In this document: one piece after another, positions 32,351 to 64,000 of the stretch
Layout of the letters: the number at the start of each line of letters is the position of its first letter
Numbering within the stretch: the stretch's first letter is position 1
Assembly (NCBI GenBank): GCA_030704615.1
Contig: CM060733.1
Location: 59,334,001 to 59,398,000 of the forward strand
DNA from: Takakia lepidozioides
Taxonomy: Eukaryota > Plantae > Bryophyta
Reading direction: 5' to 3'
DNA: 64,000 bases
Notes under the pieces: generated by a model
Seen by the model: only the letters and a program-made list of their open reading frames with translations
Database searches by the model: none
Told to the model about the DNA's origin: nothing
Translations under genes and position numbers: made by a program

Positions 32351-33005
32351 TTTATGTGGGCGTTGACGACCACATAATTCCTAGACCTCACAAAGCATCA
32401 TGTTGGAGTATGTTTTTATTATTTTTCGAAATAATTTGAAAATATTTTCTTTTTATTTTGTCATTGGAGGACTTGTGGGAGGTCCACAAATTATGTGGAC
32501 GTCAACACCCACATAAGTCCTCACATTTTATATTTAAAAAACAAATTTGAAAATTTTGGGTTTTTTTTTTTTCTTGTCATTGGAGGCTTGCGAGAGGTCC
32601 ATGAATTATGTGGGGATCAAAGCCCACATAGTCCTCACATTTTAGATTAAAAAAATGTTTTTGAGAATTTTATTTTATTTTATTTATTTTTCGGTCATTG
32701 GAGGGCTTGCGGGAGGTCCACGAATTATGTGGGCGTTAACACCCACATTTGTTTTTTTTTGTTTTTTTTTTTGGGATCGTTGGAGGGCTTGTGGGAGATC
32801 CACGAATTATGTAGGCGTCAACACCCACATAAGGTTTTTTTTTTTGTGGATGTCATTGGAGAATTTGCGGGAGGTCCATCAATTATGTGGGTGTCAATAC
32901 CCTCATAAGTTCTCACATTATCTTTTTTTTTTAAATCATTTTATTGTGTTATTAGAGGACTTGCGGGAGGTCCATGAATTATGTGGGCGTCAACACCCAC
33001 ATAAG
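32351..33005. repeat. Array of ~56-bp hairpin-containing repeats (6 direct, 1 inverted) with T-rich spacers
   Basis: Consensus TCATTGGAGGGCTTGCGGGAGGTCCAYGAATTATGTGGGCGTCAACACCCACATAA at 32461, 32577, 32695, 32777, 32853 and 32949. An inverted copy lies at ~32351-32407. Confidence 0.88.
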
Positions 33006-33571
33006 AGGCAATGAAGGCAAAGTAATAGGACATCCAAAATCAACAGGACACTATGTGTAGTATCTCATTGTTCGACAGTATAAACTCATCGTAGCTAAGA
33101 GTGTCCAAAGTTGAACTCACGTGAGCACAAACTCGGGTTTCGTCAGCAAATTTGGTTTTTTTTATTTTTTTTTATTTTTTTTCCCTCAATCTCTTGTCCA
33201 AAATTGAACTCATGTATAGCACAAACTTGGTTTCGTCAGCAAAATTCGTTTTTGTGATTACATTTTTTTCGCTTGACAAACTGCTGTAACCGATGCGCTC
33301 ATTCAATAGTGGGATAAGTATAGGCACGGAAATGCACGGAAATAGGTTCACTAGACAATGCAGTGAATCACGTCGTAGTGGTGTGGATTTAGCCCTCAAA
33401 TTAGCTTATGCTCTCGTCTTTGTTTGTTTGGCCTCCTCTTGCTACTCCAACATTTTAGATACATATGATTATCCTTTTGTTTGTGCACTTTTCATAAGTG
33501 CGGTCTCTGTTCGCGCTCACAACCACACTTTTTTTTTCATAGAATATGAATGATGGTCTAAAATATCGATT

Positions 33572-41835: not shown

Positions 41836-42199
41836 AGTTTGTTGGCAACAGACTTTCGTCTGAAGAATCACTCGCAAAGTCAGATGCAAGCAACAACTCT
41901 CCATCCTGCAAAACCACAATATAGCAATAGTAGTTAAAATCAATAAGAGCAACAAATTGAAAAAAAAATCAATTCAACAAGTAGTTATACTTACATCATC
42001 GAAGTCCACCTTTTTTTTCTCCTCCTTTGAGAATTCTAGAATCTCAAGTTTGACTTTATCCATCACCGCAATATGTTGGAAATCCTGTTACGTACAGTAC
42101 AATACTATAAAATTCAATAAATCCATTGAGATTTGCTGCAACTATGCTTTCAGCAGTATCAAAACATTGAAAATTCAAAAAAGTCCACTCTCCCCGTTT

Positions 42200-42570
42200 C
42201 GTGCTCAATATAATCACTAATCTCAAGTCGACGCAATCGATGCTCTACAGTTGAGCTAGTTGCTCCTTGCTCGCTTTTGTTTCCCTGTTCTTTGCTCAAT
42301 GCGGTCACTAATCAGTTTAAGTCTACGACATCGCTCTTTGCTCGCTCCTCACTCCTCTCTCCCTGCTCCTTGCTCAATGCAGTCACTACTCAAGTCTATG
42401 CAATCCTTTTTGCGCTCCTTGTTCACCCCTCGCCCCTCACTCATCTCTTCGTGCTCCTTGCTCAATGCGGTCTCTAAGTTTAAGTCTACGGCATCGGTCC
42501 TTGCGAGCCCCGCACTCCCCTCTCTCTGCTCTTTGCTCAATGCGATCACTACTAAAATCTACGCCATCGT
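42200..42570. repeat. Five degenerate ~75-95 bp tandem repeats (TGCTCAATGCRGTCACTA...AAGTCTACG core)
   Basis: Cores near 42202, 42293, 42371, 42459 and 42534. Confidence 0.75.
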
Positions 42571-43691
42571 TGTTGCACAAAGACGGATGTGAAAGAGACA
42601 TGAGAGACTAGAGACAATGGAAGAGCCATCTCACTTTGCCGCTATATGTTGCGAACTGCCAAGCTGTGGACCAGCCATTGGATATGAATGGAGACAAATT
42701 ATGAGGGAAAAACAATTAGTGGTATTGCTCATAAGAGTCAGCACCATGATTGCCATACTCACATTTTCCATGTCTTGCATGAATGAAATATAAATGGAAG
42801 TAGCCGCAAGGTGAAGTGACTCTTCGTTACGCCGACATTGGTCAAAGTCCTCTTGGAAGTTATGGTTGGAGCGTCTCACAAAAGGCACTCCATTGTTTTG
42901 TATGGACTTGTTGTGGGCATTGTTTTTCATAAATGTTTGACTACGCATCCATGGGTGAAAGTATGAAGATGGATGAATGTAGTATGGATGGATGTTTCTT
43001 AATCCGAAACATCGATATGCAGCGTTTATGAGTACAAGGACTAAGTTTAACAAATTTTAACTGAAATTTAGTCCAAGAATTGCTATTATTCTTGAAAATT
43101 AAAATATGAACAAGGACATTTAATGTAGTTTGGATGGATTGTTTTAATAAAATCAATGTGTACTTATACAAAGTTTAGAGCCAGGAAAATATATGACTTA
43201 GTTAAGAAAAAATCAGGACTAAGTATAAATAACCTTACAGTGGTTGTCGTTTTAAATCCAGGTAGGTAGGTGTATATTGGATGTTGTCCATTATAACCAA
43301 CCTAACTATTGAAAAATGGGTCACTGGGTGAACGGGAATTTGTGTTCATTGCATGGGGAGGTTTGGGCAACTATGTGCCTCCGTTATGGCGATAAGAAGA
43401 TAATCACTTTCCAAATTCACCCTCGAAAAAATGCAGTATTCTGATTTGCCCAAAGCCAAATCAACCCTTTCGCTGGGTCTTGCAATCCTGCAGCATGGTG
43501 CTTTCATCTTTGAAGCTGAAGATCGAATGCCAAGGTCTACCACCTCGTAACCCACATCGCCTCCGCTTCTAACAACCAAGAGCTCCACGGTGCTCCTTGC
43601 ATAACAACCTCTCTCATTCTCAAGCAAAAACCACAAGTGCTACAACTAACTCGTATCTGGCACTCACAGATTTGAGCTCATCTTTCTCGAG

Positions 43692-44008
43692 TGATAAAGT
43701 AGAAGAATACAAGCACAAGCTCATACGAGCTCACAAAGCTGAAGCATAAACTCATGCATATATAAACTCATCACTCAAATACAAGTCAAGCCAAGTGCAC
43801 CCCACGCCATGGGGAATCCACACTACGACGCCATAGCTAGGCGCGGTGAGGCTCAGATCGAGAAAGATGAGCCTCCCGCGCTTGTCTTGAAGATAACCAC
43901 TCCAGGGCCTAAATCTGCCTTGACCCCTGGATTGACACTTGGGCCAATCCCAAATGTCAATATGTAAAAGCTAGCTATTTCTTAGCTAGTTTCACACTAG
44001 TGGTAAAT
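43692..44008 (-). repeat. Dispersed repeat ('family B'), an inverted copy of 63123-63441
   Basis: The reverse complement aligns by eye with few mismatches over ~310 bp (CCACTAGTGTGAAACTAGCTA...TTCTTCTACTTTATCA). Confidence 0.9.
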
Positions 44009-47000
44009 ATAAAGAAAACAAAGTATGGGATCCATTATTCTGCCCAAGTTCTACAAAGAAAGCAATGGCAGCTTCAAAGAGATGAAAGACACTGTTGCTG
44101 GTTTGCAGGCAGAGTTTTCAAGTGCGGCAGAGTTGAAAGAAGGGAAATGGACGACATCATGCTCTTCCGCCTCTGTTTCTTGGAGGCCTCCAGCTGATTC
44201 GATGCAACAGCCAGTTTTTGTGCTTGGGTACTGCAGTACTTCCCCTCAGTTCAACACTGCCAACGTGAGGGCCAGCTGACTAAAGGTAGAATTTGGATTC
44301 ACTCTTCTGGGTGGTGATTGAGCTGGTGAGTCCCATATGGGTTCATAACATGTATCTCTACCTTTGTTCTCACCATTTCCTCACTTGAAGATATGAATGA
44401 GTAGATCATGTGTATTCTGAAGCATGCTATTTATGAGCAGTGTAGGTTTAGCAAATCAACTGGCAGCTGTTATCAGAGCTGATTGAACCTGATGAGAAGT
44501 CAGAGGCTGTCAATCATGTACCATGGGCCCCTAATGTTGGCAGGTGGGCTTCTCCAACCCTTCTCTTTCTACACGGAGACACATCTATTTCCTAATTTCA
44601 GTTTATCATAAAAAAATTATCTCGACCATCTGTTTTCTGTAAGTTATTTGTAATTTGCAGGAGACACAAACATTGTCTGCTATTGATCATAAGAGTGGCT
44701 TTGGAAAGGAGACGACTACAGAAGGAAATTCTACAAAAGACAGACTCAGCAGCTAGTCTGTAATCCAAGGAGATTAATAATCCGGAATTCGAACTGATTT
44801 TTCCTGAAAGTCCGTCCCACCTACCTTCCAAGGTTTCACGTAGTTTCTGTTAATCCTACTTTTCTGATGCTGATGAAATTCTGGTTAAGAAACATTTAAG
44901 AATGGTAGTTCTCTTGATACGTTACTAACACTGAAGAGATGGTTGTGTGTTTGAGATCCAGGTACAGAGATTTATCTTTCTTATTCGGGTCAAATCTCTG
45001 ATGAAGCTTAGTTGTTTGAAATGGAGCCAGGCTTTGCGAGTTGATAGCAGTGGTCTCTGCACTCTCCCTTAGGGTCGTCCCCCTTTTTCTTTGGACCCAT
45101 TTGTGTTTCATCTCTTCGCCGAATGTATGTACAGTGTCAATCTGGAGACTTCACACTCACAAGGAAAGCCTGCAGTGTCCAGGGTTGCACGCCTCACTGG
45201 GCACAAGGGAGAGGTTTGTTTTCACATTTTCTGCTCAGAAAGGATTGAGAATTACATGGATTGCTTCTTAGTTACAAGGTCATCTGCTTTGGGATTTTGA
45301 GTAGAACTCTGACTACTGTGGATTAGTGTATCTAGCTCCCTGATGGTGGGCATTGAAGGAACAGAGTTGCCAGTCTGTTGCTAAGAGCCCTCAAAGAAAT
45401 TTTACACAGGATTATGCCGACCCTAGTGGTCAGAGCATTATGGCCAATTTAGGGTTCTGTGCAGGTCAACTTCCTTTGGACATGTTCTGTTGTTCTTTTA
45501 ACGGCTTGACTGTCTCTGTCCGTGGGAAGGTTGTGAAGGAAGCCAATGATCTCTGCTGACCTTTGCCTGAACAGCTGACCCAACAGTGTGTGTGCAATCC
45601 AATTGACAGTAATCATATCCCCTGAGACCTTTTCAAAAAGGGGAACGTATACGAAGGCATTGAGGATAGTTCGAGAGTCCCTTTTCTCCTTCTGACGATA
45701 CATGATCACCATATAGATATTTGATACGCATTCCCTCCCTCAAATGTGTGATCCATGATCTAAGGACAACTTTGATTTCCCACCCTGACAAGAGTGCAAC
45801 AATACTATCAATCGTGTTCATGATTGCTCTCAGCCGCCCTTTCACGCTAAACCCTGATCCTAAAGGGGTGTAGAGGTTTTGGCTTTCTGTTTCACTGAAG
45901 TCTTCTGATGCAGCAGCACACATCACTTGTACATGAAGGTATGGATCTTCCCCCTTCCCACCATTGGATGTTGTCAGAGTAGGTGGGGGGCTGCTCCAGG
46001 AAGATTTTGCTTATGCACAGAAATGACTTCTTGCGTGGTCGGATTTCGGCTGGGCTGACTAAGCGCTGCCTTGAACGTTGCACAGCCTTTGGGATGGTAG
46101 ACTTTGGATTTTGTTTCTGAAGCCCGAGTGCTAATAAGCTGTCCGCAACTGATGACCATTGTAGCAAAAGGAGAAACACAGCAAGTGTGAGGGGCAGTAG
46201 GTGTGCCAAATTGCAGTGGATTGGTGATTTAATAGTAAGTTTTGTAGTTGGAGAGAAAACAGTTGGGAGCTCTCACCTGAATTTTCCAATTAATTCTCAT
46301 GTAGGGTTTTGTTGTCCTCTTTGAAAGAATTGAGTGATTAATCACAAGGTAATCAATTGAGTTTGTGCTTGGTTGTTCTATGAACTGCACGGCTAGGACG
46401 ATTGGTTTGGAGGGCATGCGATGATGACTCATGATTACAGAGAATAGTGTCCATTCCACAGGAGAAGGTTCTATGTGTTCCAACTTCCATGACTCTGAAG
46501 CATGCTCCTCCATCTCCCATAGGTAGTGCTTTCATGGTTTCTATGTCATTTTTCAAAGAACTGAGGTGTATGAATCACAAGGGATGGATGCACACTTAGG
46601 ATCTGACTCAACATGACCAAAGAGCAGTTTCCATCCTATAGGAGAAGGTTCTACGTACATGTGCTTGTGGTTGGTTTCATCCTTAGTGGTCCCTGTTCTG
46701 ATGGCTACATTCAACCAGTGGACGGGTTCTTGCTGTGCAATACTCTGTATGAGTGCATCATAATGTCTCTTCTTCGGTTCTTTGATTTGGTGCACCCGAG
46801 TGTGATGTGACTGTCGTGTGTGTTGACGGACTAGTTTCTACTAGATTGGACAGGCTGAGATGCACCAAACATGGGCTTCCTCTTGAAGACTAGATGTTCT
46901 AAAAAGTGATGTGTTTTAAGCTATGCCTGAATTTTTCTTTGTCTTACAAGCCGGCTTCTGGTCTATAGGTCTTTGCTAAAAATGAAGTAGCCAAGACAAT

Positions 47001-47851: not shown

Positions 47852-50800
47852 TTACCCAGTTTGCCCCCTGAATTTCTTCCATTTGGCGCTGATACCACCA
47901 AGGACACCACTTCGCAACTTGTAACCTTTTGGGAGACCGCCACCAACAACCTTTAAATCTTCATTTTGCTGAACAGGAATCCCAGAATGCGAGCCATTAT
48001 ATGAAACATCTTCCAGAGTACCACCAATCTGTGATACTGCTTCAGGAACACTGCTGAGGGTCCTGGCTTGCAAGTCACTGTTTGAATCCAACGCTCGAGC
48101 ACTACTACGGATCCTGCAGGCTCGCATATTCTCACACTTCGAAGGTCCTGCCTCCTGATTGGCAATGCCGCCAATCTGAGCTTGTAGATCACTACTATTC
48201 GAATCTCCTTCTGGAGAGATTTTGAACTTGTCTTCCACAACAACTTCAGCATTGATTTTTAAATAGCTTTCTGATGGAGGCGCTTCTTCAACAATTCCAG
48301 AGTATTCATCTGACTTGGAGTTTTCTGCCAAGGTTTTCTCAAACAAGCTGTCAGAATTCTCACTTATCTTCCGTGGTGAATTACTTGCTAATGCATTGTA
48401 GGCAACGGGATTTGGTTCCCCTGGACATCCAACGGCATGGTGGAGGTGCATCTCTTCAGCAACTGATTGTCTGCCCATTGAAGCAAGGGGAGGAATATCA
48501 TCTGAAATTCTGATAGCCCAGGCCGTGGCAGGTTTGGCCTCAGGAAGAGCTTCACCCAAACTCCTCAAAGGTAACAGGCGATCATGTAAGTATAGCAGAG
48601 GATGACCAGCGGGCGCCCTTTCGACCCTCACAAGATCCGACATGGTCTCCACCATTTTCCCAAGGCTTGCAAACCCTGCCGCTTTGTGGTCCAAGACATA
48701 CTGAAATCGACTTAAGAACTTTGGTTTCAACAGTCCTAGATGGTAACCATCCTTACAATCGGGGCAAGCTGTTAGCTCGATGTATAACAGCAGTCTGCAG
48801 TCTAACATCAATTTCCCCGCAAATGCATTGGCCGACAGTGGATTGTCTCTACAGTTCAAGAGAGGAGGAGACTCTCGTCTTTCTTCCCCGGCTATATAGA
48901 TTACGTGCCTCCGCCGGGAGTACTTTAACAGCCGCACAATTTCGGAGAAGTGGTTGATGAGGTCATGGAGATTGTTGAAGCCAAGGTATTTATGGTCCAG
49001 ACGAGCACCACATGCCCGCTGAAAGTCTTCCGGCACAAGTGATATGTCGTACCCATTGGGCACTCTTTCCATGAGATACAGAAGCAACTCCCTGAGCTTG
49101 TTCTTCATGTCCAATGGGCTGAATGGGGCCTTCAAATGCTCAAACACTTCGACATCTTTTGAGACCTCCTTCACATTTTTCTGCGACCCTTTCGTATTCT
49201 TGCGTACAGGCTTACTAGACTCTGCACATAGTGCTGCAGTCTTCGCGCTGATTTCAGGTTTACTCTTGGACTGGCCCCCAACCTGTTTCGTGTGAGAAAC
49301 TGGCAAGCTTGCTACTATTTTCCTTGCATTGTCAGCAATCTCAATTGCCTTTAGGTTGCTCTCGCTTGGAGGCCGTAGCAAGCCTTTCCGGGAGCTGGGC
49401 TGATGTAATGACAACTGATCTCCTGTGATGGCAACTGTAGGTTTGGGAGCAGCCTTCTTCGAATCTTTGTGTGTAGGACCTGTATAGACCAGGCTATAAT
49501 TTGGATCTGACGGAGCTGAGGACGCAGTGAGGCCTTCGCCACTGGCCAGGCTACCCCAAAACCACACTCTGGATGCTATACCAAGCAGGGATGGTGGGAC
49601 ATCCACAGTACCAGGAGGTAGTGCCAGCAGAATATTGTAGGTTTTCATTCGTAGCCGATGCAGCGCATTTGCAAAGTCGAGGTCCCCGGATATGAGCAGA
49701 AAACTTGCTGGAGGAGGGTTGTCAAGTGCGAAAATATCATGTCCACCAATATTGTCTTATTGTTTGCCTCCTTCTTTCCTGGGCACCACCCACAGTCCGT
49801 CTTGTGTAAGGATCCCAAGTGCTGCACATGAACATAATCAATGGTGATTCATAATCATATCAAGTTCCACATGCAACATTGTTCAAGGGCAAGTTATAAG
49901 TTGCACCCTGTCGCAACATCCTGCCAAGTGAGCCACTTGGCGAGGTGGTCATATCTGATGCAAGCTGCTTAGTCCTGTCAACGAGGCATCAATGTTGCTG
50001 GCAATGTATGTAAGAACCCTCGAACATCAAGTGACCAGTTGATGTGATTTTAGATTACAACCTTGTTCAATTCAATGTTGGCAGGTCCCACAGATTGTCA
50101 GTTGATCGACAGTTTAATGAGCCCCTCTGGTCCATTCGATAAATAGTTCAGGAGTTCTTACCTTGTATTCCGTTTGAACACATACATGTATGTATGACCC
50201 AAATTCTGACATTCTTATATTGAACATTCAGCTGACTGATCAGCCAAGATCACCCTCGAGAATTTTCCATGATCTAGATGGACTCTGATTGTACAGAACA
50301 TACCAATTCAAGAATCATACGCGAAGTCTGATCTTGCAGAAAGACTTGCTGCAGTGCTGACAGCTTCAGGCGACAGTACGAAAAAAACAGCATGCAGGAC
50401 CACGGAAAAGAAAGCCTATTTAGTACTGGGCACCATCTCGATCAGGTGATCACTTGTGGAATGCCCTGTAATATGGGAGTAGGTGTTATAGAAAACCAGG
50501 CAAAACCACATAGACCTCTGTTGGAGGTTTTCTCGAGGTTTTATGGATCACATCCTCACATGTGAGTAAAGCAGACGTATCAGCTGGTTCCTAAATCTGA
50601 ACTATCATGCAAGTGTATCACCTTAAGCTAAGTAAAGGAGACAACCGTCATACAATCTACCTGAGCCCACTTAGTTTCTTATTTCCAGAGCGGGAATACG
50701 ACCTGAATACAAAGTCTGCAGTACGTAGTCATCTGATCTGATTCATAAGCAATGGTCCATACATGTTGGACAACAGATGACCACTATTTGAGCCTTGCAT

Positions 50801-51078
50801 GAATGTACGAGGACACAGTCGAAAGACAAACCGGTTGGGACGTGGTGCAAGTCGATGCCTGTGCTTGACAATGCTGTTTGAACGACTTTTGGCAGCGACT
50901 GTAAGTGACCGTAGGCAGAAATGGAGATAGGCCCTTTTAAATCGGCCGCAGTCAGCGATAAGCTTACGTTGCGGGCTATGACATTGGGGTCAAGCCCTGT
51001 AGGCACAGGGCAATTCTCCATGTCCCACCAAACACATATCTTTGCTGTACTCATTGTGGAGGCGCTCCCCTTTGCCAT
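47852..51078 (-). pseudogene. MARF1/Limkain-b1-like NYN + two OST-HTH/LOTUS domain gene (exons 51078-50832 and 49778-47852) with a 1-nt frameshift
   Basis: ICVWWDMENCPVP, ISAYG, STGIDLHHVP, then ALDNPPPASFLLISGDLDFANALHRLR (in a shifted frame). LOTUS-like GYDISLVPEDFQRACGARLDHKYLGF and GYHLGLLKPKFLSRFQYVLDHKAAGFASL. The frame breaks at A4, 49731-49734. Confidence 0.82.
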
Positions 51079-52554
51079 CTCGAACTTCCTGGGCCCGCCA
51101 CTCGTGGCTGCAATCTTCCACGTTCATGTATACATGCTCTCATCACCGTCTACCGCTCTAACTCATGAGTAGTCATCATTACCATGCGGCGGGCCCCCGC
51201 AACGGTATCTTTTTCTGGCCACTGTCCACATGAGCACAAAAGACTTAAGAGATTAGTTATTTCAGATAGTATTGAATCAACCTCCTCTGCATGCATGCTA
51301 TGATCATCTCGGTGCTCGATCACTAGCACTTGCCTTTCAACTGTGCCATGGCATGCAGGATGTCTAAGTCTGAATATTAAACCCTTTTCTAACCTACATA
51401 CCCTTTGTCTACATGCAAGAGGTAGAATACCTGGAAGGATAGGAACAATGTGTGGGAAGCATGGGTGGACTATGCGCACCACCTTGGTTAAGTACAGCAC
51501 CCATAGGTGGACAGGCAAACTGTGCAGATCAGGTTATCCTTGCATTTCCTGGCAGTCTGCAAGCAAGCTCTTCCTTAGGATTCATCTTCATGTCATACAG
51601 GTTGGGTAATGCAGTAGGAGGGTCTTAGGACTGCACTAAACAATCTACTCCACACAAGAAAGACAGTTCTTCCCACAGTTTAGCAAACAGTGACATCTCT
51701 TTCTCACAACCAAGTAACTGAACAAGCAACTAAGGAATGATATGTCAGATGAAGAACAAGGCTAGATGATGGAAGATTCAGCTGTGGGGAGGACCCTGTT
51801 TCATGGTGAGCAGAATGGGCAAGAAGCAAAGGCTGAGTGCAGAAAAGAAATGTCAGCTTAAAAGTTTTAGAACTTTGGACAATCGTATGCAACTGCATAT
51901 GATTGACTTTCTCCAATCTCCTCTTCTGTACAACACTCACTTGCATTTGAGGATACATCAAACCTGCAAAAACTCAGCGGCATACTCAAAATTACCGTTT
52001 GAACTTACACTGTCTCTCTATCACTCTTGGCCCTCTTTCTTGTACGTAAAAACCTGACCTAATTTTTGCATTGTATTTGGAGGTACCTTCCCGAGCAGAA
52101 CTTGCCTCCTGTTTTTGGAGGTACCTTACAAATTTGTAAGGCCCTGCTAGGCTGGCAGGTAGGCTGGCAGGTATCTTACGTTAAGGCCCTGCTAGGTACG
52201 GTTTTCACGTTGGGGAAGGCCCTTCACTCAGGGCCTTCCCCTACACAGTTCATTCCTTGAGCAATGATTGTTCTTGGCTGCTTGTGGAGGGTCCCTCTTT
52301 CTTCATTTCTTTTTCTTTGCTCTTTGAGCATTCCACAGAAAAAATATCATTTCATTCCATTTCTTCATATCTCCCTACTACTGGAAACCTCATGGGCAAG
52401 GTAATCACTGAAGCTTATTACTCATTTCTTGTAAATCTGATGCCTCGGCTCATGTTCTACTATATGAACCTCTTGCTTTCTTTGCAAACACACATGCAAG
52501 TTATTGTATGCACCCATGAGCAATTGGCAAGAAAGTGCAGGAAGGGAAGCTCAC

Positions 52555-55103
52555 CTGCTCATCACTGTCCCACCCTTTGCGTGCTGCTCGTGCTGCGACA
52601 CCCCACACTCAACATCAAGGTGAATCTTTGAACAAGAGACAGCAAGTTCTCTAGACTCTTATGGTTGCTCTTGCCAGAAGGAATGACACCATTCCATCCC
52701 ATGCAACATCGTCAACCCTGTGTCAGTTTGGCTAATTAACTAGGTTTGTGATGGAGCTGGTTGGGTGAGTGGAGCTCTAGATTGAGAGTAAGATATTTTC
52801 TCAAATCCCTAGTCAGATTGACTTTCAGTTTATAGTTCTACAGACATGTAGGCTATTTTTCATTGGTTTTAATATTGGCTGTAGGTGTGAGGAGGACCCA
52901 GCAAGGGGAACCAAAGCCGCATACCCAGTCTGGACCAATCCCTATGTGACCCTCTATGACTCCCAATCCATCAGAAAGGGTGGCCCAGATTCTTTAGATG
53001 AGGGCCAACACCTCCCACTTGGGAGATTTAGCTAACTGACACATTCTGACGTTTGCTAGTTGAGACAGGTTTTCTTTAGAAAGTTTGAAATGATTGGAGA
53101 GACACCATTGCTGCTGGCTGTGTTGATCCAGGGTTGTAGTTGGCAGAGAGATGACCCCTTGGGCAAATGGAAATATGAGTGGTCGGGCTTTGCAGTGCGA
53201 GAGGTCTTACTGTCCCAGTAGCGATTCTTTACTGCCAGCTACAAAAGTTCAAGTTTATTGTGTCAGACTGAGAAGTTGGGCAATATATCATACCGGCATC
53301 ACGATTAAGGTTGCGAGTACGTGGCTTGAACCTCTCCTCACAGCAATCCCAAACTAGTAACTCCCCGTCGAGCACGTCTCTGCTTTCTTCAGTCTGTAAG
53401 TCGAAGCAAATCTAATAGAGAGACGACGCCAACTGAAGTGAGCGTAAATAAGTGCTCAAGAGAGCATATCAGCGTGCTGTACAGCTAATGTGGGCTAGGG
53501 TGACCTACCGTCCTTAAGCCCTCGACATCATGAGTCGAGGTTGGATGGTGTCACATGCCTAATACCAAATACCCATTTTCTGATACAATGTCCGGGGTAT
53601 TCTGATCAGTGACTGTCAGGATCATAGTCCTGTACCTCTATTCACCAACTTTCAAAATCTCAGGCTGAAGCTAAAGCCCTGGCCTCGTCGGGGTCTAAGG
53701 CACTGGGCAGATCACACACAGCAGATTGATGCTTGTGTGGAGGGTTTTCTAGAGGAAATCTGGAAAGTCCGAACACATTGTTTATATCAAGGTAAGTCCC
53801 AATAGTGGAGGAAGCCCCTCACCAAGGTAGTTTGCATGGGGACTACGGCCACAAGGCTATTGCAAACAATGTCTTTTGAGTACATTCTACTAGATTGCTT
53901 GCCCAGTCCTGAAAGGGGTCGGTGCCCGTAAGGGGAAGAGACGGACTCCAAAGTTTTAGCACGGTTGGAATTTCCCTCCCGTATGGCAAATATGTACTTC
54001 AAGGTGGGCCTAATAACGTTGCAAAGCATTGTCCTTTTAACTCAGAATCAATCCAAAGCTAATCTAAGCAATGTAATAGAATGTACTCTTAAGACATTGT
54101 TTGCCGTAGCCTTGTGGCCATTGACCCCACGCCCAGTTTGAGCGGAACACAAAGGGACAGAACCTACCTCTGTCAGGGGCTGACGTTGGTAGTAAGACTT
54201 AACCTTGAAGCAATGTAATAGAGAGCAAGAGGAAGGGAATGAGGTTGATAGTGGACCATGAACAGCAACTTCATACTTCATTTTTTCAAAGGCAATAATG
54301 TGCAAATTCCTTCAACATTATGGTTTCAGCAGTTGATCTTCTTGAGAAAGCATTAATTGCTTATGAAGGTAGGCTGACTGAAGCTGAGACAAAATATTTG
54401 CTGATTGATGTTTATGAATCCTACGCAATCCTTTAGAACCTCATAGTCCAATTCATCTAGTTATTTTCAAGCCACCTAGGACTAGAGGCTGACCGGAGAC
54501 ATTTGGAAGGTGTTGAAGTATGCTTGACATCTTATTGTACATACAAACTCTGGCAGTGGGTAAAGTAGGTGAGATGGCACACCGCTTTGATTTAATTTGT
54601 TGCTGAAGAAGAGGACCAAGTGCAACATTGTATTCTGCATGTTCCTTCCCATATCTGCCCCACCCAGAAACCTAGCAATTCAGCTGACCTTAACCTTGAT
54701 GCTGCATATCTATGCAGCAAGTGTGCAAAAGTGGGCTTGCTCAAACCGGGCAGGTGCAGACCTTGCTTCGAAGTATCCCACTAGAGGTTTGCTTTATTGG
54801 ACAGAGTAGAACAAGAAGAAGAAAGCACTTCAGGAAATATCAAACAGCCCAGAAACTAAGTGGCTCAATGTAGGTAGGCCAGGCTTTTCGGGTCCTCACG
54901 GCTGAAAGTAATTCATTGATTGAATGGCAATGGGCCTTCTGATTGCAATGATGCTAGCAGGTTCAAGTGAGGTAATGCAGAATTGCAAAGGAAACCAAGG
55001 AACAAGACAGTACCGTGACCAAAAGTGCAGGCAATCACCATCCTTGTGTACTTGCATTCGGTCACCATCAAATTTCCACTCGGCCACAACCCTTGCCCTT
55101 CAT
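52555..55103 (-). pseudogene. LIG4: Isolated DNA ligase IV-like exons (55103-55014 and 52592-52555)
   Basis: VVAEWKFDGDRMQVHKDGDCLHFWSR carries ligase motif I (KxDG), with a frameshift just upstream. A micro-exon encodes ARAARKGWDSDEQ. Both are flanked by AG/GT. The other exons are not recognisable. Confidence 0.7.
53790..54210 (-). mobile_element. Degenerate non-LTR retrotransposon RT C-terminal fragment
   Basis: YQRQPLTEV and LCNVIRPTLKYIFAIREGNSNRAKTLESV resemble the post-RT P.LEY...W.G....K.LE block of LINEs. Confidence 0.4.
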
Positions 55104-55419
55104 CTGGATGAGGAGGCTAAAATTAATATGTAAGACAGCAGACAGTGCTACTTGGTAAACATACTCACAACAAAGTTCATACCAGACTCAATCTTGGCAA
55201 AAAGAGATGCAGTAGTGTTTTTAATTGCTCACAAAAAGGCCTCTGGAGAAAAACTGCTAACTCATCAGAAATGGATGCCTCACAAATTGGGCACATCGGT
55301 ACCTTTCACCAGACAGCTTAACTTCCTACTCAGACATGTAAGCACTTCCCTAGACTAGACTTTAAATAAGGGCGCACTTGTGGGAGGGTCCTTCAGGAGC
55401 TATGACCCCCATTGCTTTT

Positions 55420-55860
55420 TCCATGCTTGAAAGAAATGGAAGCGGTGATGGCCTTCATCCAGTAGGCCCACATGACTACAGGCCAAATGTTAGTGATGAC
55501 CACTAACATTTGTGTTGCATTTGCACAAACAGTTGAATGGCCTCCTTACATACCCACAGAGGCCATATATGGGCAACATCACACTCCAAGAAACCATATC
55601 TCATTGCGACATTGTAGAACACTGACAGACACTGTTCCACATTTAGCATACATATCTACAAGGGTAATCTGTAGAATGATATATGGCAGAATCCATGTCA
55701 GTACGGACCTCTCTGCAATTTCCCATCACCTCGTTTGGCTTCACCCCTCCTGTATCATTTGTCTTATACATCTCGAAAGCCTCCCTCCCACAGCCATACT
55801 AAGCATATCCTGTCATCATCATATTCTGCGCATATGTCAAACACTTCATGGACATCCTTG
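55420..55860 (-). pseudogene. Degraded PLS-class PPR fragment
   Basis: Remnants KDVHEVFD, MMTGYA*YGCGREAFEMY, QMIQEGVKPNEV, LVDVYAKCG and ACSHVGLLDEG, with deletions and stops. Confidence 0.75.
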
Positions 55861-56157
55861 AATGGGGCGGAGAGGAGGGTAGCACCTGGTGAACACGTTC
55901 TCTACCCGGTTACCTTGTGGAGAGGGGGTTAGGGACATGTTCATGACCGGTTGAGTGTCAACACGGAGGTGCCACTAATTGTTGGGGACAGTGCCGGTTC
56001 GAGCACTAGCGATACTATTGGGTACACGAGACGAGGTGTGCGGTTTAGGCCACCTTCACCTCCTGTGTCTTCTACGGAAGGTTCTGATTCGGATTGTGAA
56101 TCAGGAGGACTCATACTGGCGGTGCAAGTTGTTTCCTTGCCATTGTTGTGGGACACA

Positions 56158-57203
56158 ATGGAGGAGATGTATAGAGCAACCAATGGGCCACGAAGGTACT
56201 CTGGGGCGGTGGGCACCATCGAGTTGGATGATTTTATCCAAGAGTTTGATAGTTGGTGTGATTTGCAGCAAATGTGCAATCCACAACTATTTACGCCTTT
56301 CATGGCATGGAAGAGGCTGTTTCAGCACCTTGAGGGGCCGCCTATGGATGATTACCATGAGTTCAGGCGGGGGCATGAGGTTGAGATCGAGGAGTGGAGG
56401 ATGTACTGGTCACCCGACTATGTCTCCATCACTAGGGGCACTAGAGCCACGAGGGCAGTGGCTACACCTGCCGCTGCACCGGCAGCTTCAGCAAGCAGCA
56501 GTTGGACTAGTGGGACTGGTGGTACAGTAGCTACGACGTCCACCCAAGCCACTACCGCACCAGCACTAGTACCCGTGCCTGCCTTCAACCCTGTTGTGGA
56601 GTTCTTCGAAGAGTTGAGAGGGAACTACCAAGGGGTGATGACAGAGAAGTTGCGGAGCTTGCAAGAGTTCCAACGGAAGCCGACCGAGAGCTTGAGGGAG
56701 GCTTTCACTCGCATGAGACGCTTGATAAATGTAACCCAAGGGGTTACGGAAGCTCAGGCAGTCCAATTCTGGTATGGGATATTGGACAAGGAGCTGAGGA
56801 GAAGGGTACGGGATGCAACTCTCCTACAAGCAGCCCAACCCACCTTAGCAAATGTGTTTTTGCTGGCAGAGCGGATAGAGCTCAACATGGTGGGTGGTCA
56901 TGGTGGGATTTGCTAAGGAGACACCACGGGGTAGTGGTGCTCCTAGCCAATCACTACCTCAACGTACTCAAGGCAACAAGGAGGCTCAGGTGAAGCTCAG
57001 GGAAGGGCAGAGATGACCTCAGATGCAGGGGTCTCTCCCTTCATTTGTTTGCCAACAACGGGCGGATGTGGTGTGCTGGACATGTGGAGGACCCCATGTC
57101 AAGAAGGATTGCCCAGAGGGAGGCAAAGGGCCGGCACATGCACAGCCTGTACAGTTGCAGTGTGGGCATTGTGGCAAGCACGGGCATGGAGAGGCCCAGT
57201 GTT
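56158..57203 (+). pseudogene. gag: Gag with two CCHC zinc knuckles
   Basis: Capsid-like LDDFIQEFDSWC and LQEFQRKPTESLREAFTRMRRL...FWYGIL. Knuckles CWTCGGPHVKKDC and CGHCGKHGHGEAQC, followed by RGG-rich sequence. Confidence 0.85.
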
Positions 57204-58139
57204 ATGGTTTGCATCCTGAGTTGCGCCCAGACCAGTTCCAAGGGAACAATGGTGGACGGGGGCGAGGTGGACCAGCCCAGAGAGGACGAGGTGGCCAGGC
57301 ACGAGGTGCAGGCCAAGGGCAAGCTCAACATGGCCAAGGACGCGGAGGTCAGGGTGTTGACCCAAGGCATGGCCAACCGGCTTCAGCAGCTAGAGCAGAG
57401 GCTCGCTGCCATGGCTACAGCTCAGGTGGTACCGGCTCCAAGGCCGGATGGTCCACCTCCTGCTCATGAGGGAGGAGATATGGGAGGCATGGGATTCATG
57501 TGCGGAGCAGCACTACCACTAGTGCAGGTGGAGTCTGCTGCAGCCGTGACTCGAGGAGCAGCACGAGTTCCTGAGCCACGAGGTGTAGAGGTGGAGTTGG
57601 ATCCACAGCGTGGGGAGGCAAGCCGTCAGGCTAGGCTTCCTTAGTCATTCACATTGGCGGAGATAGTGTCGACACCATCCATGGCACCTAGTTCTCGCCC
57701 GACTGTTACCGAGGCGGAGGTTACTATGCCATTGGGGAGAGCTACATGGGTAGCACCACTACCTAGTGTTGCCAAGGCTACGGCAGCTAGTGTGCTACTA
57801 GGAGCGGCCACATCTGTGTGCCAGGCTCCATTGTTCTCGGCTACCATGATTGCGACGCCGAGGGTAAGACCAGCTGAGGTGTTCAGGCTGGCAGCTACAC
57901 TCTGTGAGAGTGGGGAGGTTACTTCATCTTCTACAAAGATAGTGGGAGGTATAGTGCCGGAGGGATCCTCGGATTTGAGGGTCAAGACTGCCACAGCGGC
58001 GCCATGGCAAGCTGCAGCTGCCAGGTTGATGGAGTTGTCAGCTAGGCCAGCCATTGAGCGCGCCATGGTTACACCTGGAGTTATCATGTTAGACAACCAG
58101 GATGGCATTTTCTGTTTGAGTGGACCGGCAGGCAAGAGG

Positions 58140-58430
58140 TACTGGCCATTGTGGGTCTTGTTGGACTCGGGAGCTCAGCCATTGATGCTGGGCAGAGCTG
58201 CTATTGCAGGCTTGGGCCTCACGGAGGTGGATATGGAGCCTTGTCCTTTCCAGATATAGACGTCTCTGGGAGGATCGGAGCAGGCTCGGGGCATGACATC
58301 AGACTACGGCCGGATCACCCTACAGATGGCTCAGTGATGCGAGCCAAGGCCATTGTGATAGACGCGGTCTCATACGATGTCCTGGTTGGTGGGGCAGTGT
58401 TGTACCCCATGGGCTTCACTCTGGATTGGA
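58140..58430 (+). pseudogene. Retroviral-type aspartic protease
   Basis: VLLDSGAQ active site and a YDVLVGGAVL C-terminal motif, separated by a stop and frameshift. Confidence 0.85.
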
Positions 58431-58857
58431 GGAGTCAGCTTCCTATAGGCATGCATGGCAGTCAGGGGAGAGTCGGCGTATGCAGCTCCCTGTGACGTTC
58501 ATAGGAGGAGTTGCGGTTGCCCAGCGAGGCAAGATGCCGACACTAGCAGCATTCACAGCGGCAGTGAGTTGGCCTGAAGAGTTGCTTGAGGGCAACGCTC
58601 ATTCAGAGGATGTGCCACCTCCGGGAGAGCAGGATGACATGTATGGTATGGCGGAGTTGCCTACCATGGTTGCTCAGACTCCATTGTGGGGCACGAGCAA
58701 GGATTTGCAGCGGGTTGCTGATCGACGGGTACAACAAGCCTAGGTGGAGGCTTTTGTACCATCAGGAGAGGAGGAGAGTGCGGGGATTGCACCAGGACCA
58801 CCTCAGTTGTCTCCATTGGACACCACATCTATTGTGTGGCAGTATCCGGATGAAGGC

Positions 58858-59790
58858 ATTTGTCTTCTGGACTTGTTTGGCGGGATCAGCACCGGATTGG
58901 CTGCTGTGTTACAGGCAGGTGTACGAGTTCGGCGTTACCTGTATGTGGAGAGGGATGAGACTGCACGATGCATTTCACTTCACCATGTTGCTCAGTTGGT
59001 GCAGCGGTACCCTGAGTTGTTGCCGGTGTCTGCAGTTCGTGGATATCAGCAGGCCTTGCCAGCAAACATTTCGTTGCTGGGGGCGCAGGATTTGGAGCGG
59101 GTTGGCTTCATTGATCTGGTAGTGGCAGGTTGGCCCTGCCAAGGGCATTCATCAGCCGGGCATGGCAATGGATTGCGAGACTCGAGGTCGGGTCTGTTTT
59201 GGGAGATGGTGCGGGTTTTGCGCCACTTGCAGCTTCATCAAGCTGTATCTCCAGCATACATCTTGGAGAATGTGCCACTGATGGGCGATTCTCGGGCCAG
59301 AATGATGGCCAGTGTGCATCAAGTCCAGTCGTGGCTTGGGTCAGCAGTGTTCTTAGATGCAGCTACAGTGGGGTCACAGGCTCATCGTCCACGGCTATGG
59401 TAGACTAACTTAATGCCACCCGCACTGCTCAAGCGTGCATTTGATGGGGTGCAGCGGCCAGCACATCTCACAGTGGATAGCATTCTGGACACAGGGAGGC
59501 AATCTCAGCGTGTGAGACACGATGACTGTTTGCCTTTGGCAGTGGTCAACAAGGTGGCTCAACCGCGAGCAGCATTACCTACACTGCTCAGCTTCCCAGG
59601 ATCGCATGCTTTCCGGGATTGTGGACCTGGCCTCATGTGGGATGCTCAATTGCAGCAGTTAGTGGAGCCTAATGCTGACGAGCATGAGAGGGCAATGGGT
59701 TTTACCACTAGTACCACGGCGGTGCCGTCTCTTTCTGAGGCAGCACGTCATCAGGTGTTGGGGCAAGCAATGGATCTCAATTGCTTGACC
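58858..59790 (+). pseudogene. DNA (cytosine-5) methyltransferase domain, DNMT3-like, inside pol
   Basis: Motif I LLDLFGGISTG, II YVERD, IV DLVVAGWPCQ (catalytic Cys codon 59137-59139), GLRDSRSGLFWE, VI YILENV, VIII SQAHRPRLW*TN, IX EHERAMGF, X ARHQVLGQAMD. One frame throughout, with one internal TAG at 59401. Confidence 0.93.
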
Positions 59791-60158
59791 TGCATTATCA
59801 GCTTGGCTATGGCTGAGCAACGCAGAGTGCGGAGTACACTTCCCTCGCTGGTCTCTCTGCCTACCGAGACGGTACAGGCAGTGAGTGGGGGCGAGCATGT
59901 GAGGACCATGGGTGTAGGCATCCATGGCACACGTAGGAGGTGCTCGAGGTTCAGAGGGAGTTGGCAGCCAGGGTGGCGGTGATGGATGAGGTTGGGGATT
60001 TTTCTCGGGTTGAGGAAGTCCTCGAGGATGAGATGATGGGGCAGGATGAGGCTTTGTCATTGACTGAGCAGGCAGGGAGTACTGCTCAAGAGGTTGCAAC
60101 ATAGCAGCCACTGGACGCGTCCTTTACCTCTAAGCCCACTGGACTTAAGGTTGCAGTT

Positions 60159-61030
60159 ATGGAGGGCAATTGGGAGCCTGACATTGGACCCATTGTCACC
60201 GGAGGAGAGAGACCACGTATACGGCGGTTCCTGAGGGCTTACAGGAATTGCTTTGCCTTCAGCTTTAAGGACTTGGGAGCACTAAAGGGTCAAGAGATTT
60301 GTATTGAGTTGGCCGCTGACCCTATAGATACAGTGACATGGAGAGGTCTTTGATTCAGATGAGGACTCAAGATCTCTGGGAGGCAGGTTTGGTGGAGCTC
60401 TCTGGTGGAGAGTATGCTTCAGCCACAGTGATGCCAGCCAAGAAGGATGTCTATGGCAATTGGACGGAGAGACGTATGTGCGGTGAATACCGGCCTGTAA
60501 ATCGTCAGACCAAGTCCGATAAGTATGCCATGCCAACACCGGAGGAGATCTTTGATACCATCGGGCATGCTAAGGTCTTTAGCACTTTGGATTTACGATC
60601 CGGATATCATCAGTTGCCGATCAAGGAGGTATTGGAACGCTTGAGAGCGCACGGATTGAAGTTGGGAAGTGCAAGTTTTTCCACAACCAGATTGAGTATC
60701 TGGATCACATGATATATCCTGGAGGATTGGGGGTATAACAGACTAACGGCTTATGCTAGCCACTCGAATAACGCTGCAGAGGCTAAATATAGCTCATATG
60801 AGGGAGAGTGCTTAACTGTAGTGTGGGCCGTGGCACACTTCAAGTGCTATCTATATGGCAATCTCTTCACTCTTGTCACGGATCACCAGCCACTCAAGTA
60901 GTTGATGGAGTCAGACAAGCTTACGGGGAAGCCTACATGGTGGGCACTCATACTCCAAGAGTATGACTTTCAGGTTGTGCATCGACCGGGTTTGGTCAAT
61001 CGGGATGCGGATGGATTGAGTTGCAATCCA
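60159..61030 (+). pseudogene. Reverse transcriptase and RNase H with internal deletions
   Basis: YASATVMPAKK...RRMCGEYRPVN...FSTLDLRSGYHQ is joined directly to VLERLRAHGLKL. RNase H motifs YSSYEGECL, LVTDHQPLK and NRDADGLS are present. Confidence 0.9.
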
Positions 61031-61376
61031 TGCACGAGCCAGCAGGATGACACTGGAGCTCGGTGGCATGGTGAGACGGACGAGGAGATGGTGCCGGGAT
61101 GGCACGCATCTGCATTTTTGTGTATCTTGGCATCGGGAGGTCAGGTTGGACCTACAATAGGGATGACTATAGACGGAGTGTTTGAGGACCCTGAGGCTAG
61201 TGATGAGCCAGGTAGTGCCAGAGATATACATGAGGATTCAGCTGTGTTGGACTACCTCCACACGGGAGACACGGCAGCCACTTTGACTGCCAAGGAGAGG
61301 GATCGGATCGTGCAACAAGCCAAGAGGTTCAAGTGGGAGGGGATACACTTGCTCCCGAGTATGGGAGGATGGTCGG

Positions 61377-62460
61377 GTGAGGATTGTGCCTCACCCCACA
61401 CAACGTGCACGGTTAGTGCGGCATGCCCATGAGGAGTTGGGGCATTTTGGAATGCGACGCACTCACAGTTTACTGCAGAGGCAGTATTGGTGGCATGGTA
61501 TGCATACAGAGGTGCAACAGTTCGTGGCTAGGTGCATGGTGTGTGACAAGGTGTGTGCTTCATTCAACGCCCCTACACCACAGTTGCATCATTTACCAAT
61601 CATGAAATTGGGCTACAGGTGGAGTCTTGACTTCGCAGGACCGTTGCCACTGACTATGCGCCACCACAAATATGTGTTGGTGATGGTGGAGCACTTCTCC
61701 AAGTGGATTGAGTTGGTTCAATTGCCTGACAAGGCTAGTGAGGGGGCTGCGTATGCATTCTTGGATCGTGTGCTTAACCGATTCGGTGCTCCAACTGAGG
61801 TACTCACGGACCAAGGGAGAGAGTTCTTGGGGGAGTTTCAAGCTTTGTGTGATAAAGCCTTGATAGACCACCGCACCACTTCTCGGATCATCCTGAGGCC
61901 AATGGCTTGGCAGAGAGAGTTGTTCAGACGGTGAAGAGGGGTTTGCGCAAGTATGGCTTGCAGAAAGGACACCTAGGAAATTGGGATCTTCAGATGCCTT
62001 GGTTAGCCATGAGCTGCAGGTTCAGCAAACAAGCATCACTTGCATCTTTCTCACCATATTTCCTTCTCTTTGGCCGAGAGCCGGATTTGCCTGCAGCCAT
62101 TCGTAGGGACACTGCTCAAGTCCTTAACCTTGATGATCCGGACGTGTGGGTACATGCATGTGATCAGCGTGCAGAGTTGTTCAAGAAAGTCATGCCGATG
62201 GCTTTTGAGAACCTTGCCATTGCACAACACCATGATACGTTGAGGTATGTCACTATACGTGGTGGAGGATATCGTCCTGGGGTTCGGAGGTTTAGCCCTG
62301 GTGACTATGTTTATTTGCAGCAAACTGCTCCTACGACCCTGGATGTCACTGCAAGGCGTGTTATTCTGAGGGTTCGAGAGGTGTTGCCCTCAGGAGTCCT
62401 GATCTTGGACGGTCGGGATGGCATGACTTAGAAGGACCATGTGCGTAATTGTGCGTCATG
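61377..62460 (+). pseudogene. Integrase (HHCC zinc finger + DDE core + C-terminal domain)
   Basis: HEELGHFG...CMVC, WSLDFAGP, LTDQGREF, AERVVQT and SPYFLLFGR. One frameshift near 61880. Confidence 0.93.
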
Positions 62461-62524
62461 TCACCTTCCCAATGTCGATGGCAGAGTTGACCCAAACTTG
62501 GCAATGGTACTTGCAGGTTTGAGG

Positions 62525-62654
62525 TGCATGCTTTGTGGGTCTGCCAAAGGGGCAGCCACCATGCTGGTGTGTGATCAATGCTCAAGGGGTTGGCATATGG
62601 GATGTTTGACACCACCTCTTAGGTTCCTGACGGAGATTGGTTGTGTCCACACTA
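62525..62654 (+). pseudogene. PHD finger at the integrase C-terminus
   Basis: CMLC-x11-CDQCSRGWHMGCLTPPL then, after a frameshift, VPDGDWLCPHY. This is a C4HC3 pattern with the last Cys changed to Tyr. Confidence 0.88.
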
Positions 62655-62924
62655 CTTGGGATAGCGGCAGTGGACATGACTGGAGGCAGCTAACAAAACA
62701 TGGGAGGCCAAGCTCATAGAAGTCAATACACGAGATCCCAAGCTCAAGTTCACAGGTTGCAAGACGGCGACTAACGATGGGGCAACTCTTGCATCCGGCC
62801 TCTTGATCTATCGAGTTTGAGTGTAGTAGGGACAGTGGTGGAGGACTTAGTGAGGCTATGGTAACTATCACATCTTGTGGCTACCTGAACTTAGAGGGAC
62901 CTAAGCACCAGCTAGGGGGGCGAT

Positions 62925-63114
62925 TGTGTGGACTAGTGACTGCCATAGTGGGCAGCATAGTGGCAGCCTAGTGACTGACTAGTTGTAGCCTAGTGGTTGG
63001 ACTAGTGGTTGGACTAGTGGTGGACTAGTGGTATACTAGTGTGTGGTATGCACATGTGTTGTGTGGTTTTGGACAGCGATGTAGTTGTGTAGCGATATGT
63101 ATGCGCACGACAGC
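62925..63114 (+). repeat. First 190 bp of the 3' LTR (family A), rich in ACTAGT/GGACTAGTGGT sub-repeats
   Basis: Starts TG four bases after the PPT. Near-identical to 63443-63631. Confidence 0.8.
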
Positions 63115-63442
63115 TGTCAAGTTATTTTACCACTAGTGTGAAACTAGCTAGGAAATAACTAGCTTTTACATATTGACATTTGGGATTGGCCCAAGTGTCA
63201 ATCTAAGGGTCCAGGCAGATTTAGGCCCTGGAGTGGTTATCTTCACGGCAAGCGCGGGAGGCTCATCTTTCTCGAGTTGAGCCTCACTGCGCCTAGCTAT
63301 AGCGCCGTAGTGTGGATTCCCCATGGCGTGGGGTGCACTTGGCTTGACTTGTATTTGAGTAATGAGTTTATATATGCATGAGTTTATGCTTTAGCTTTGT
63401 GAGCTCGCATGAGCTTGTGCTTGTATTCTTCTACTTTATCAT
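63115..63442 (+). mobile_element. Family B repeat interrupting the LTR
   Basis: Starts TGTCAAG exactly where the two LTR-A copies diverge. Homologous to 43692-44008. Confidence 0.75.
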
Positions 63443-64000
63443 TGTGTGGACTAGTGACTGATATAGTGGGCAGCATAGTGGCAGCCTAGTGACTGACTAG
63501 TTGTAGCCTAGTGGTTGGACTAGTGGCTGGACTAGTGGTGGACTAGTGGTGTACTAGTGTGTGGTGTGCGCATGTGTTGTGTGGTTTTGGACAGCGATGT
63601 AGTTGTGTAGCGATATGTATGTGCACGACAGCCCAAATGATGCTCATGTTGAAAGATTGGGGAGTTCTTCATGGCATGATGCATCTCATGGTACCCAAGG
63701 CGCCTCTCCCGCTCATGTCCATGATACCTCCATTGTTGGCCAGTCCTCGGCCAGGAAGGGCCTCGCATTTGGCCAGCTCGTTGCTGTGACTCTAGCTAGT
63801 GGCAGTTGGGGTCAAGCCTCTCCTGAAGAGCAAGCACAACTCCTAGGACCATCTTGAAAAATCTTTATATTACCCGTATACAATGCTTTTAACGAAGGAG
63901 AGAGGGTAGCGCTAGATACTGCAGGCCCAATGGTGGACTCATCAATAGTATCGGTAGTATCTGGCACAAGAGCCACTTCAACTACAACATCTTGGCCCAA
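63443..64000 (+). mobile_element. Second LTR of family A; right boundary not determined
   Basis: Restarts TGTGTGGACTAGTGACTG and matches 62925-63114 through ...GCACGACAGC, then continues with new sequence. Confidence 0.75.

Follow-up and report, generated by a model that had tools for sequence, protein, structure and literature searches.

Introduction

Retrotransposons with a DNMT3-type DNA cytosine methyltransferase (DNMT) are already known from algae. A 2018 survey (de Mendoza et al., PMC5890265), in whose species set Physcomitrella appears as the sole bryophyte, reported KnitGypsy-Dnmt3 of Klebsormidium nitens, for which a figure legend notes DIRS-like repeats, and a dinoflagellate retrotransposon whose DNMT3 performs de novo CG methylation in yeast. 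For the algal elements, the element's own cDNA was proposed as the substrate (PMC5890265). According to a 2019 review, land plants such as tracheophytes have no DNA methylases encoded by transposons (PMC6338049), and two later papers (PMC12344493 and bioRxiv 10.64898/2026.05.21.726589) use the word "streptophytes" in the passages concerned. Here, we describe a stretch of 64,000 nt from the bryophyte Takakia lepidozioides (GCA_030704615.1, contig CM060733.1, 59,334,001-59,398,000, forward strand), referred to as the window. It holds a decayed, 5′-truncated Gypsy retrotransposon (55862..63630, plus strand; the start is approximate, and the copy lacks the 5′ repeat A1 as well as the greater part of the leader) that encodes a DNMT3-like domain.

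In the literature searched, which included few subscription papers and not Repbase, we found no report of the family from land plants, of its stop codon, or of its priming site, nor any paper on six Marchantia gene identifiers of the family. The supplementary trees of the two later papers and the supplement of PMC5890265 may contain bryophyte copies.

The methyltransferase domain

An earlier note, made from the letters of this DNA, had claimed an intronless DNMT3-like domain between the protease (PR) and the reverse transcriptase (RT), on the same strand as pol. This is what we find, i.e. a C5 cytosine methyltransferase domain in a single frame (58837..59832, plus strand). Its size had been put at about 310 codons; it comprises 332 codons and is interrupted by a premature stop at 59401, with another stop in the same frame just upstream, at 58741. 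The motifs follow each other in linear order, i.e. I (FGG, 58873), II (VERD, 58942), IV (PCQ, 59128), VI (ENV, 59260), VIII (HRPRLW, 59383), IX (ERAMGF, 59686), and X (RHQVLG, 59746). The proposed search with the profile PF00145 gave a match with E=1.9e-12 (47.7 bits, cut-off 22).

The best PDB match in a single-sequence search was DNMT3A (1e-8). In a profile search, DNMT3A (9e-20) was followed by DRM (3e-10), HaeIII (1e-5), HhaI (4e-5), and DNMT2 (1e-3). The predicted structure (pLDDT 84.4) has a methyltransferase fold, with DNMT3A as the top Foldseek match (2.4e-19) and DNMT3 proteins in 35 of 35 rows among the matches listed, while the ESM Atlas returned generic PF00145 clusters only. Judged by sequence, profile, and predicted fold, the domain is a C5-methyltransferase that is nearest to DNMT3A/B. 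DUF3444, which is C-terminal in host DNMT3, was not found by Pfam in the window or in the Marchantia relative P0122; for the latter, Pfam gives PF00145 only, and no recognized targeting module on the methyltransferase.

The earlier note had contrasted the linear motif order with the circularly permuted DRMs of plants. The order is confirmed, but on its own it does not speak against plants as the source, since an unpermuted DNMT3 exists in non-flowering plants (PMC6453930); a better argument is that the domain groups with proteins of algal elements (see below).

The catalytic Cys and Glu are present in all 141 domains that were compared, with hardly any variation in the PC, EN, and RxR residues. 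The dN/dS values were 0.06-0.19 in eight unsaturated pairs between families (three further pairs were saturated) and 0.53 and 0.74 in two comparisons of decayed copies that belong to a single family. By these comparisons, purifying selection acts on the domain; together with the invariant catalytic residues, this argues that the enzyme is functional in live copies. The window copy is dead, with several frameshifts and two large deletions.

A trait of the family

To obtain a depth profile, contigs of four runs were placed on positions 54500-64000. Run X1, which may be the source sample of the window, has a depth of ~130-160 in the flank, 0.58-1.12 million in the internal bins, and ~1.0 million over the DNMT; summed depth was not used as copy number. 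The steps coincide with the element borders (bins 55768-56084 and 63376-63692). Runs X5 and X6, from other studies, have an equally flat profile over the element and a flank depth near zero. The family is very abundant, and the DNMT is covered as well as the rest of the element.

Protein searches yielded 118 and 61 relatives with up to ~70% identity, among them proteins of Marchantia polymorpha, M. paleacea, Riccia, Calypogeia, and several Sphagnum species. The PR-DNMT-RT order that the earlier note had proposed to look for in bryophytes is present in proteins of Marchantia, Calypogeia, and Sphagnum. Several Marchantia gene models of the family contain a full-length open reading frame (ORF) 1 with all motifs; full-length gag-PR-DNMT ORFs are Mp4g09160, MpVg00370, MpVg00540, Mp5g06330, and Mp5g06860 (P0122, P0241, P0242, P0248, and P0249, respectively). 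These five gene models are annotated as hypothetical proteins, and two of them lie on the V chromosome.

From metagenomes, 80 loci (L numbers) were kept out of 108 confirmed stretches. Most belong to one lineage, called peat-moss-like since it groups with a Sphagnum protein in a tree. Among the loci with enough flank, a protease lies upstream of the DNMT in 56 of 62 and an RT downstream in 53 of 61. Because the loci were baited with the DNMT, the depth profile is the sole evidence on DNMT-less members. The flat depth and the order fixed in many loci show the DNMT to be an integral trait of the family, with the order gag-PR-DNMT-stop-RT-RH-INT-PHD (RH, RNase H; INT, integrase). The presence of such a family in a land plant, as first noted for the window, is supported.

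The opposite possibility, i.e. that the domain was inserted just once, is a neutral passenger, or is an artefact of assembly or contamination, would be in accord with the broken window copy, whose 5′ edge is spanned by no listed contig. It is largely refuted and very improbable, given the flat depth, the order and spacing fixed in many loci, the presence of the family in chromosome-scale bryophyte assemblies, and dN/dS values well below 1. Neither a one-off insertion nor a chimeric or contaminant contig, which the earlier note had considered, was found.

The peat-moss-like locus L071 also contains remnants of another Gypsy family with a DNMT, which is divergent (37% to the domain of Marchantia), at 4007-4429 (minus strand) and 17459-18479 (plus strand).

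Ancestry of the domain

A profile search returned 533 clusters (50% identity level, E no higher than 1e-30), of which the best 150 were examined. The DNMT has two placements among these relatives, PR-DNMT-RT and RH-DNMT-INT. An unrooted tree was calculated from 141 domains, i.e. those with at least 250 residues and an assignable placement plus selected earlier matches. It splits all 43 PR-DNMT-RT domains from all 98 RH-DNMT-INT domains with a support of 1.0. The PR-DNMT-RT group contains bryophyte elements, the Klebsormidium nitens protein GAQ93235.1, which we infer to be a KnitGypsy copy, and two Closterium proteins; these three are the ones with an organism name among ten entries looked up. 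A protein of Klebsormidium, which the earlier note had cited as precedent, falls in one group with the window domain, and the two domains are 37% identical. In an RT-RH tree of 63 sequences, the ten PR-DNMT-RT elements also form a group (0.998) that is nested among the others under midpoint rooting; this tree holds no reference lineages and cannot classify the elements.

Since its domain groups with the Klebsormidium and Closterium proteins, the window element represents, by sequence, KnitGypsy-Dnmt3 in its land-plant branch. Elements of streptophyte algae are the probable source from which the domain was inherited, as opposed to a capture in this genome; transfer is a less probable route.

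A second large class of Gypsy elements, likewise with a PHD finger, has the related DNMT in the RH-DNMT-INT position, behind RNase H and ahead of the integrase (P0151-P0173 as well as many of P0429-P0566). No description of this class was met in the literature.

A conserved stop codon upstream of the reverse transcriptase

The enzyme had originally been placed inside pol. The comparison of junctions assigns it to the gag-protease frame instead, where it ends ORF1 ahead of a conserved in-frame stop with a readthrough-type context (TAG CAG CCA, 60102..60110, plus strand). The ORF1 proteins of Marchantia, Calypogeia, and others terminate shortly past the DNMT. The set comprised 54 DNMT-RT junctions, one from the window and the others from 53 loci; a further 26 loci were without one anchor, and L024 was skipped on account of an insertion. 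In 53 of the 54 junctions, an in-frame stop precedes the RT by ~17-23 codons; 39 of these stops are TAG and 14 are TAA. CAR-YY follows directly in 51 of 53 cases. The junctions represent 44 distinct copies in six lineages, and the linkers are otherwise dissimilar. The full CARYYA is present in four of the six lineages (the window, L003, L044, L046, and L049). As a control, CARYY was found after only 1 of 60 decay stops inside the DNMT of 18 loci. In L044, the conserved stop is the only interruption of the reading frame between gag and PHD.

UAG followed by CAR YYA is the readthrough signal of tobacco mosaic virus (TMV), with ~10-fold more short than long product (PMC2754532). By analogy of sequence, it is likely that RT-RH-INT-PHD is made via readthrough of the stop that follows the DNMT.

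Element ends, predicted priming, and proposed integration

The earlier note had ended the element at 63114, but it runs to 63630. A polypurine-tract-like G run (62912..62922, identified by sequence and found at an equal position in peat-moss-like loci) adjoins repeat B1 (62923..63112), which ends with GACA. Next come GC and the start of repeat A2 (63115..63440), resulting in the palindromic junction GACA-GC-TGTC, and repeat B2 (63441..63630), which forms the 3′ end and has 7 differences to B1 in 190 nt; all lie on the plus strand. A separate, inverted 5′ end of the family, which might be the displaced 5′ end of this copy, is located at a distance of 12 kb on the upstream side (43676..44012, minus strand) and consists of a repeat A (44012-43693), to which A2 is 95% identical, and a predicted self-priming site. 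The flanks of this inverted A copy and of the truncated element share no matching target duplication.

Relatives with both ends have the order A-internal-B-A-B (L062, L038, L073, and L071) or A-internal-B, and the element ends are TGTC...GACA. The element has no two identical flanking long terminal repeats (LTRs); in place of paired LTRs, it carries split direct repeats, A...B-A-B. An exact 4-bp target duplication is present in seven of nine relatives with both ends; in one further case 3 of 4 bp match, and one is ambiguous. Such ends and duplications are those expected of Ty3/Gypsy elements (TG...CA, 4-6 bp). The element is Gypsy by its coding domains and atypical by its ends.

The bases past A1 are complementary to a stretch within A. 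In the window, the complementarity extends over 17 nt, and the self-primer complement is predicted to lie within A2, at 63261-63277. It amounts to 10-17 nt, with different sequences, in 11 of 20 other loci and to at most 8 nt in the remaining nine and in the controls. Self-priming has been predicted for Tcn1 and Tf1/Sushi elements (PMC6317226), and foamy-virus integrase is described to cleave palindromic circle junctions (PMC1180852). The split ends with their conserved junction, the target duplications, and the predicted self-priming site suggest an integration from a circle.

The window shares the B|A junction GACA-(GC)-TGTC with the peat-moss-like lineage, L044, and L049. Conservation of the junction in four lineages raises the possibility that methylation steers integration, i.e. 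that the enzyme marks one B|A palindrome of an identical pair (with the core CAGCTG) and the integrase opens only the other; of the two opening products to be expected, only one was seen. L044 has GT at the junction center, and the missing product could be hidden by recombination or assembly collapse, so that we consider steering of integration to be improbable.

At some A|B joints, extra bases were observed (L050 13290-13360; L038 10815-10880). The L050/L051 joint keeps sequence of the priming site, and the L038 joint has an insertion; both would fit an imprecise end joining of linear cDNA.

Troyka elements were considered and rejected, as they are described with CG...CG ends, a 3-bp duplication, and no split repeats, and from animals only (PMC12440569), vs. 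TGTC...GACA and 4 bp here.

Function of the methyltransferase

Our favored reading is that, in live copies, the particle contains the methyltransferase and newly made element DNA is methylated by it prior to integration, to which we assign a probability of roughly 50%. Ribosomes would very probably halt mostly at the UAG, leading to abundant Gag-PR-DNMT, and occasional readthrough would yield RT-RH-INT-PHD. The RNA would probably prime its own reverse transcription, and the RT would produce a linear DNA with a true LTR equal to B+A. The linear DNA may well be joined end to end, generating the A2|B2 joint, and the integrase would then open the internal GACA-GC-TGTC palindrome and insert the DNA. 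With about even odds, the methyltransferase would mark the new DNA, probably at CG, and the copy would arrive methylated and pass as host DNA or be quickly silenced.

A number of points weigh against self-methylation and the route proposed for it. The Klebsormidium element DNMT yielded no methylation in yeast, a result that its authors call inconclusive (PMC5890265). Pairwise C/T differences among 18 loci were 0.32 at CG, 0.40 at CHG, and 0.09 at CHH, and the observed/expected ratio of CpG was 0.49 in the element and 0.48 in the flank; this decay pattern is that of ordinary plant host-type silencing and contains no element-specific mark or clue to specificity. The distant relatives P0193 and P0448 are without a stop between DNMT and RT, and thus a dosage at the Gag level is not essential. 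More than a quarter of the conserved stops are TAA, and the largest lineage reads CAA CCC, short of the full CARYYA. The mirror product A-B-A-internal-B, which the circle model predicts, was found at none of the loci with a 5′ end. Members lacking the DNMT could not appear among the 80 baited loci, and the domain trees are unrooted and contain neither host DNMT3 nor DRM.

The inactivity of the Klebsormidium domain on yeast DNA, together with the location of the domain in the structural frame, could also indicate that it serves on RNA or as a nucleic-acid-binding component of the particle and is not a DNA methyltransferase. The nearest sequences and folds are those of DNMT3A/B, with the tRNA methyltransferase DNMT2 reaching only 1e-3, and the almost invariant PC, EN, and RxR residues likewise make this unlikely.

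The strong decay of the copies at CG and CHG could alternatively reflect an enzyme that acts on chromatin after nuclear entry and methylates the insertion site or old copies in trans, silencing the family and sparing the host. This option was raised in PMC5890265; in addition, the integrase PHD finger links the complex to chromatin, and the output at the Gag level, judged from the position of the stop, would far exceed the need of one cDNA. However, the domain has no recognized targeting module, and the host enzymes MET1, CMT, and DNMT3 can account for the decay pattern (PMC6453930 and PMC10952607; the latter and PMC11982613 were used for host context only). An action on chromatin therefore appears to be rather unlikely.

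Methylation of the element's own DNA is accordingly retained as the preferred reading. A wider picture is more tentative and at present doubtful, namely that the clade is ancient in the green lineage and alive in mosses and liverworts, including Marchantia, with an active de novo methyltransferase at capsid level, integration via the circle palindrome and not via linear LTR ends, and pre-methylated copies, and would represent a second, mobile source of de novo 5-methylcytosine for bryophyte genomes.

Organization of the window

The window element has the Ty3/Gypsy coding order PR-RT-RH-INT with a DDE integrase; all of its parts lie on the plus strand. In relatives, a leader of ~1.1 kb plus A1 precede gag. 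The capsid-like region of gag (56158..56892) matches PF03732 with E=0.0014, under the cut-off, and residues 1-237 of Marchantia Mp4g09160 at 64%. Two zinc-knuckle-like motifs (57074..57205) lie in a frame that differs from that of gag and match the corresponding part of P0122 at 44%. The aspartic protease (58068..58430, DSG at 58164) is frameshifted and reaches 53-55% to the protease region of P0122; the protease of relatives matches PF13650/PF13975. The reverse transcriptase and RNase H (60165..61027; PF00078, 8e-5, and PF17917, 2e-16) contain frameshifts and two large deletions, one of which has taken the RT catalytic center in comparison with ORF2 of L044. The DDE integrase has an H2C2 zinc finger (61377..62428; PF17921, 6e-16, and PF00665, 3e-14), and a PHD finger is present at its end (62525..62625; PF00628, E=3.7e-7).

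A Pfam scan covered 14 ORF pieces of the window. It gave no match to a chromodomain, the PHD finger being found in the integrase position instead, and no match to a tyrosine recombinase, in place of which rve and H2C2 matches were obtained. These pieces do not fit DIRS/Ngaro elements, which have a tyrosine recombinase and no DDE integrase. No viral contig matched the stretch.

Directly left of the element lies a decayed fragment of a PPR gene (55406-55825, minus strand), which resembles a PPR gene that is intact (10947-13229). The right flank (63631-64000) has ~8x single-copy depth in run X1 and is probably another low-copy repeat. For a flanking gene of the plastid ribosomal protein L31, the five best matches reach 81-86%; among matches named to organism, Riccia (80%) is followed by Ceratodon (77-78%), Marchantia (76%), Physcomitrium (69-74%), and vascular plants (at most 69%), which makes a moss or liverwort host most likely on the basis of this one gene. 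An exact look-up of three flanking host proteins gave no match. Degenerate tandem arrays with periods of ~10 to 470 nt occupy 23278-24182, 24722-25133, 30284-31533, 32347-33026, and 42172-42576, and a sequence resembling a miniature inverted-repeat transposable element, with 67-nt inverted repeat arms spaced by 165 nt, is found at 53834-54132. Broken ORFs with endonuclease and RT-like wording (37309-41753, minus strand) are presumably derived from an element like the long interspersed nuclear elements, and two genes (7616-9265, plus strand, and 47852-51123, minus strand) have what we take to be NYN-domain-like wording.

Comparison with known systems

The family is contained in Marchantia gene models, so that the role of a retrotransposon DNMT can be tested in a genetic model plant. 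It may affect the reading of non-canonical methylation and of DNMT counts in bryophytes. A leaky stop together with split ends would be an unusual route of expression and integration, and split ends would explain why programs that search for paired LTRs miss such elements.

KnitGypsy-Dnmt3 resembles the bryophyte family in its DNMT3-related domain, which has neither introns nor a permuted order and is part of a Gypsy polyprotein, in its DIRS-like repeats, and in the purifying selection (PMC5890265). In contrast, it is algal, whereas the family described here has a land-plant host, is very abundant, and has only 37% identity in the domain. A possible further difference is that the algal DNMT is placed in the Pol ORF in the passages on that element, which mention no readthrough (PMC5890265); here, it is in frame with the RT but lies upstream of the conserved stop. 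SymbioDIRS-Dnmt3 of Symbiodinium is also a retroelement with a DNMT3-type enzyme, for which de novo CG methylation has been demonstrated (PMC5890265). However, it is a dinoflagellate DIRS element and represents an independent capture, while the bryophyte element has a DDE integrase and 4-bp target duplications.

The host DNMT3 proteins of non-flowering plants, e.g. PpDNMT3b, have a linear DNMT3-type catalytic domain as well, but they carry a C-terminal DUF3444 and are not located within a retroelement (PMC6453930). The chromoviruses Tcn1 and Tf1/Sushi are similar in their Gypsy order, moss hosts, and predicted self-priming (PMC6317226); the family differs from them by its split repeats, the methyltransferase, and a PHD finger where they have a chromodomain. 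A PHD finger is also reported for Gypsy-7a_cRei, with no methyltransferase among its listed domains (PMC9940879). The predicted expression strategy resembles that of TMV in the in-frame UAG and the CAR-YY ahead of the polymerase part; it differs in that the signal is located in a retrotransposon between DNMT and RT, that CAA CCC prevails in the commonest lineage, and that readthrough is a prediction in this case.

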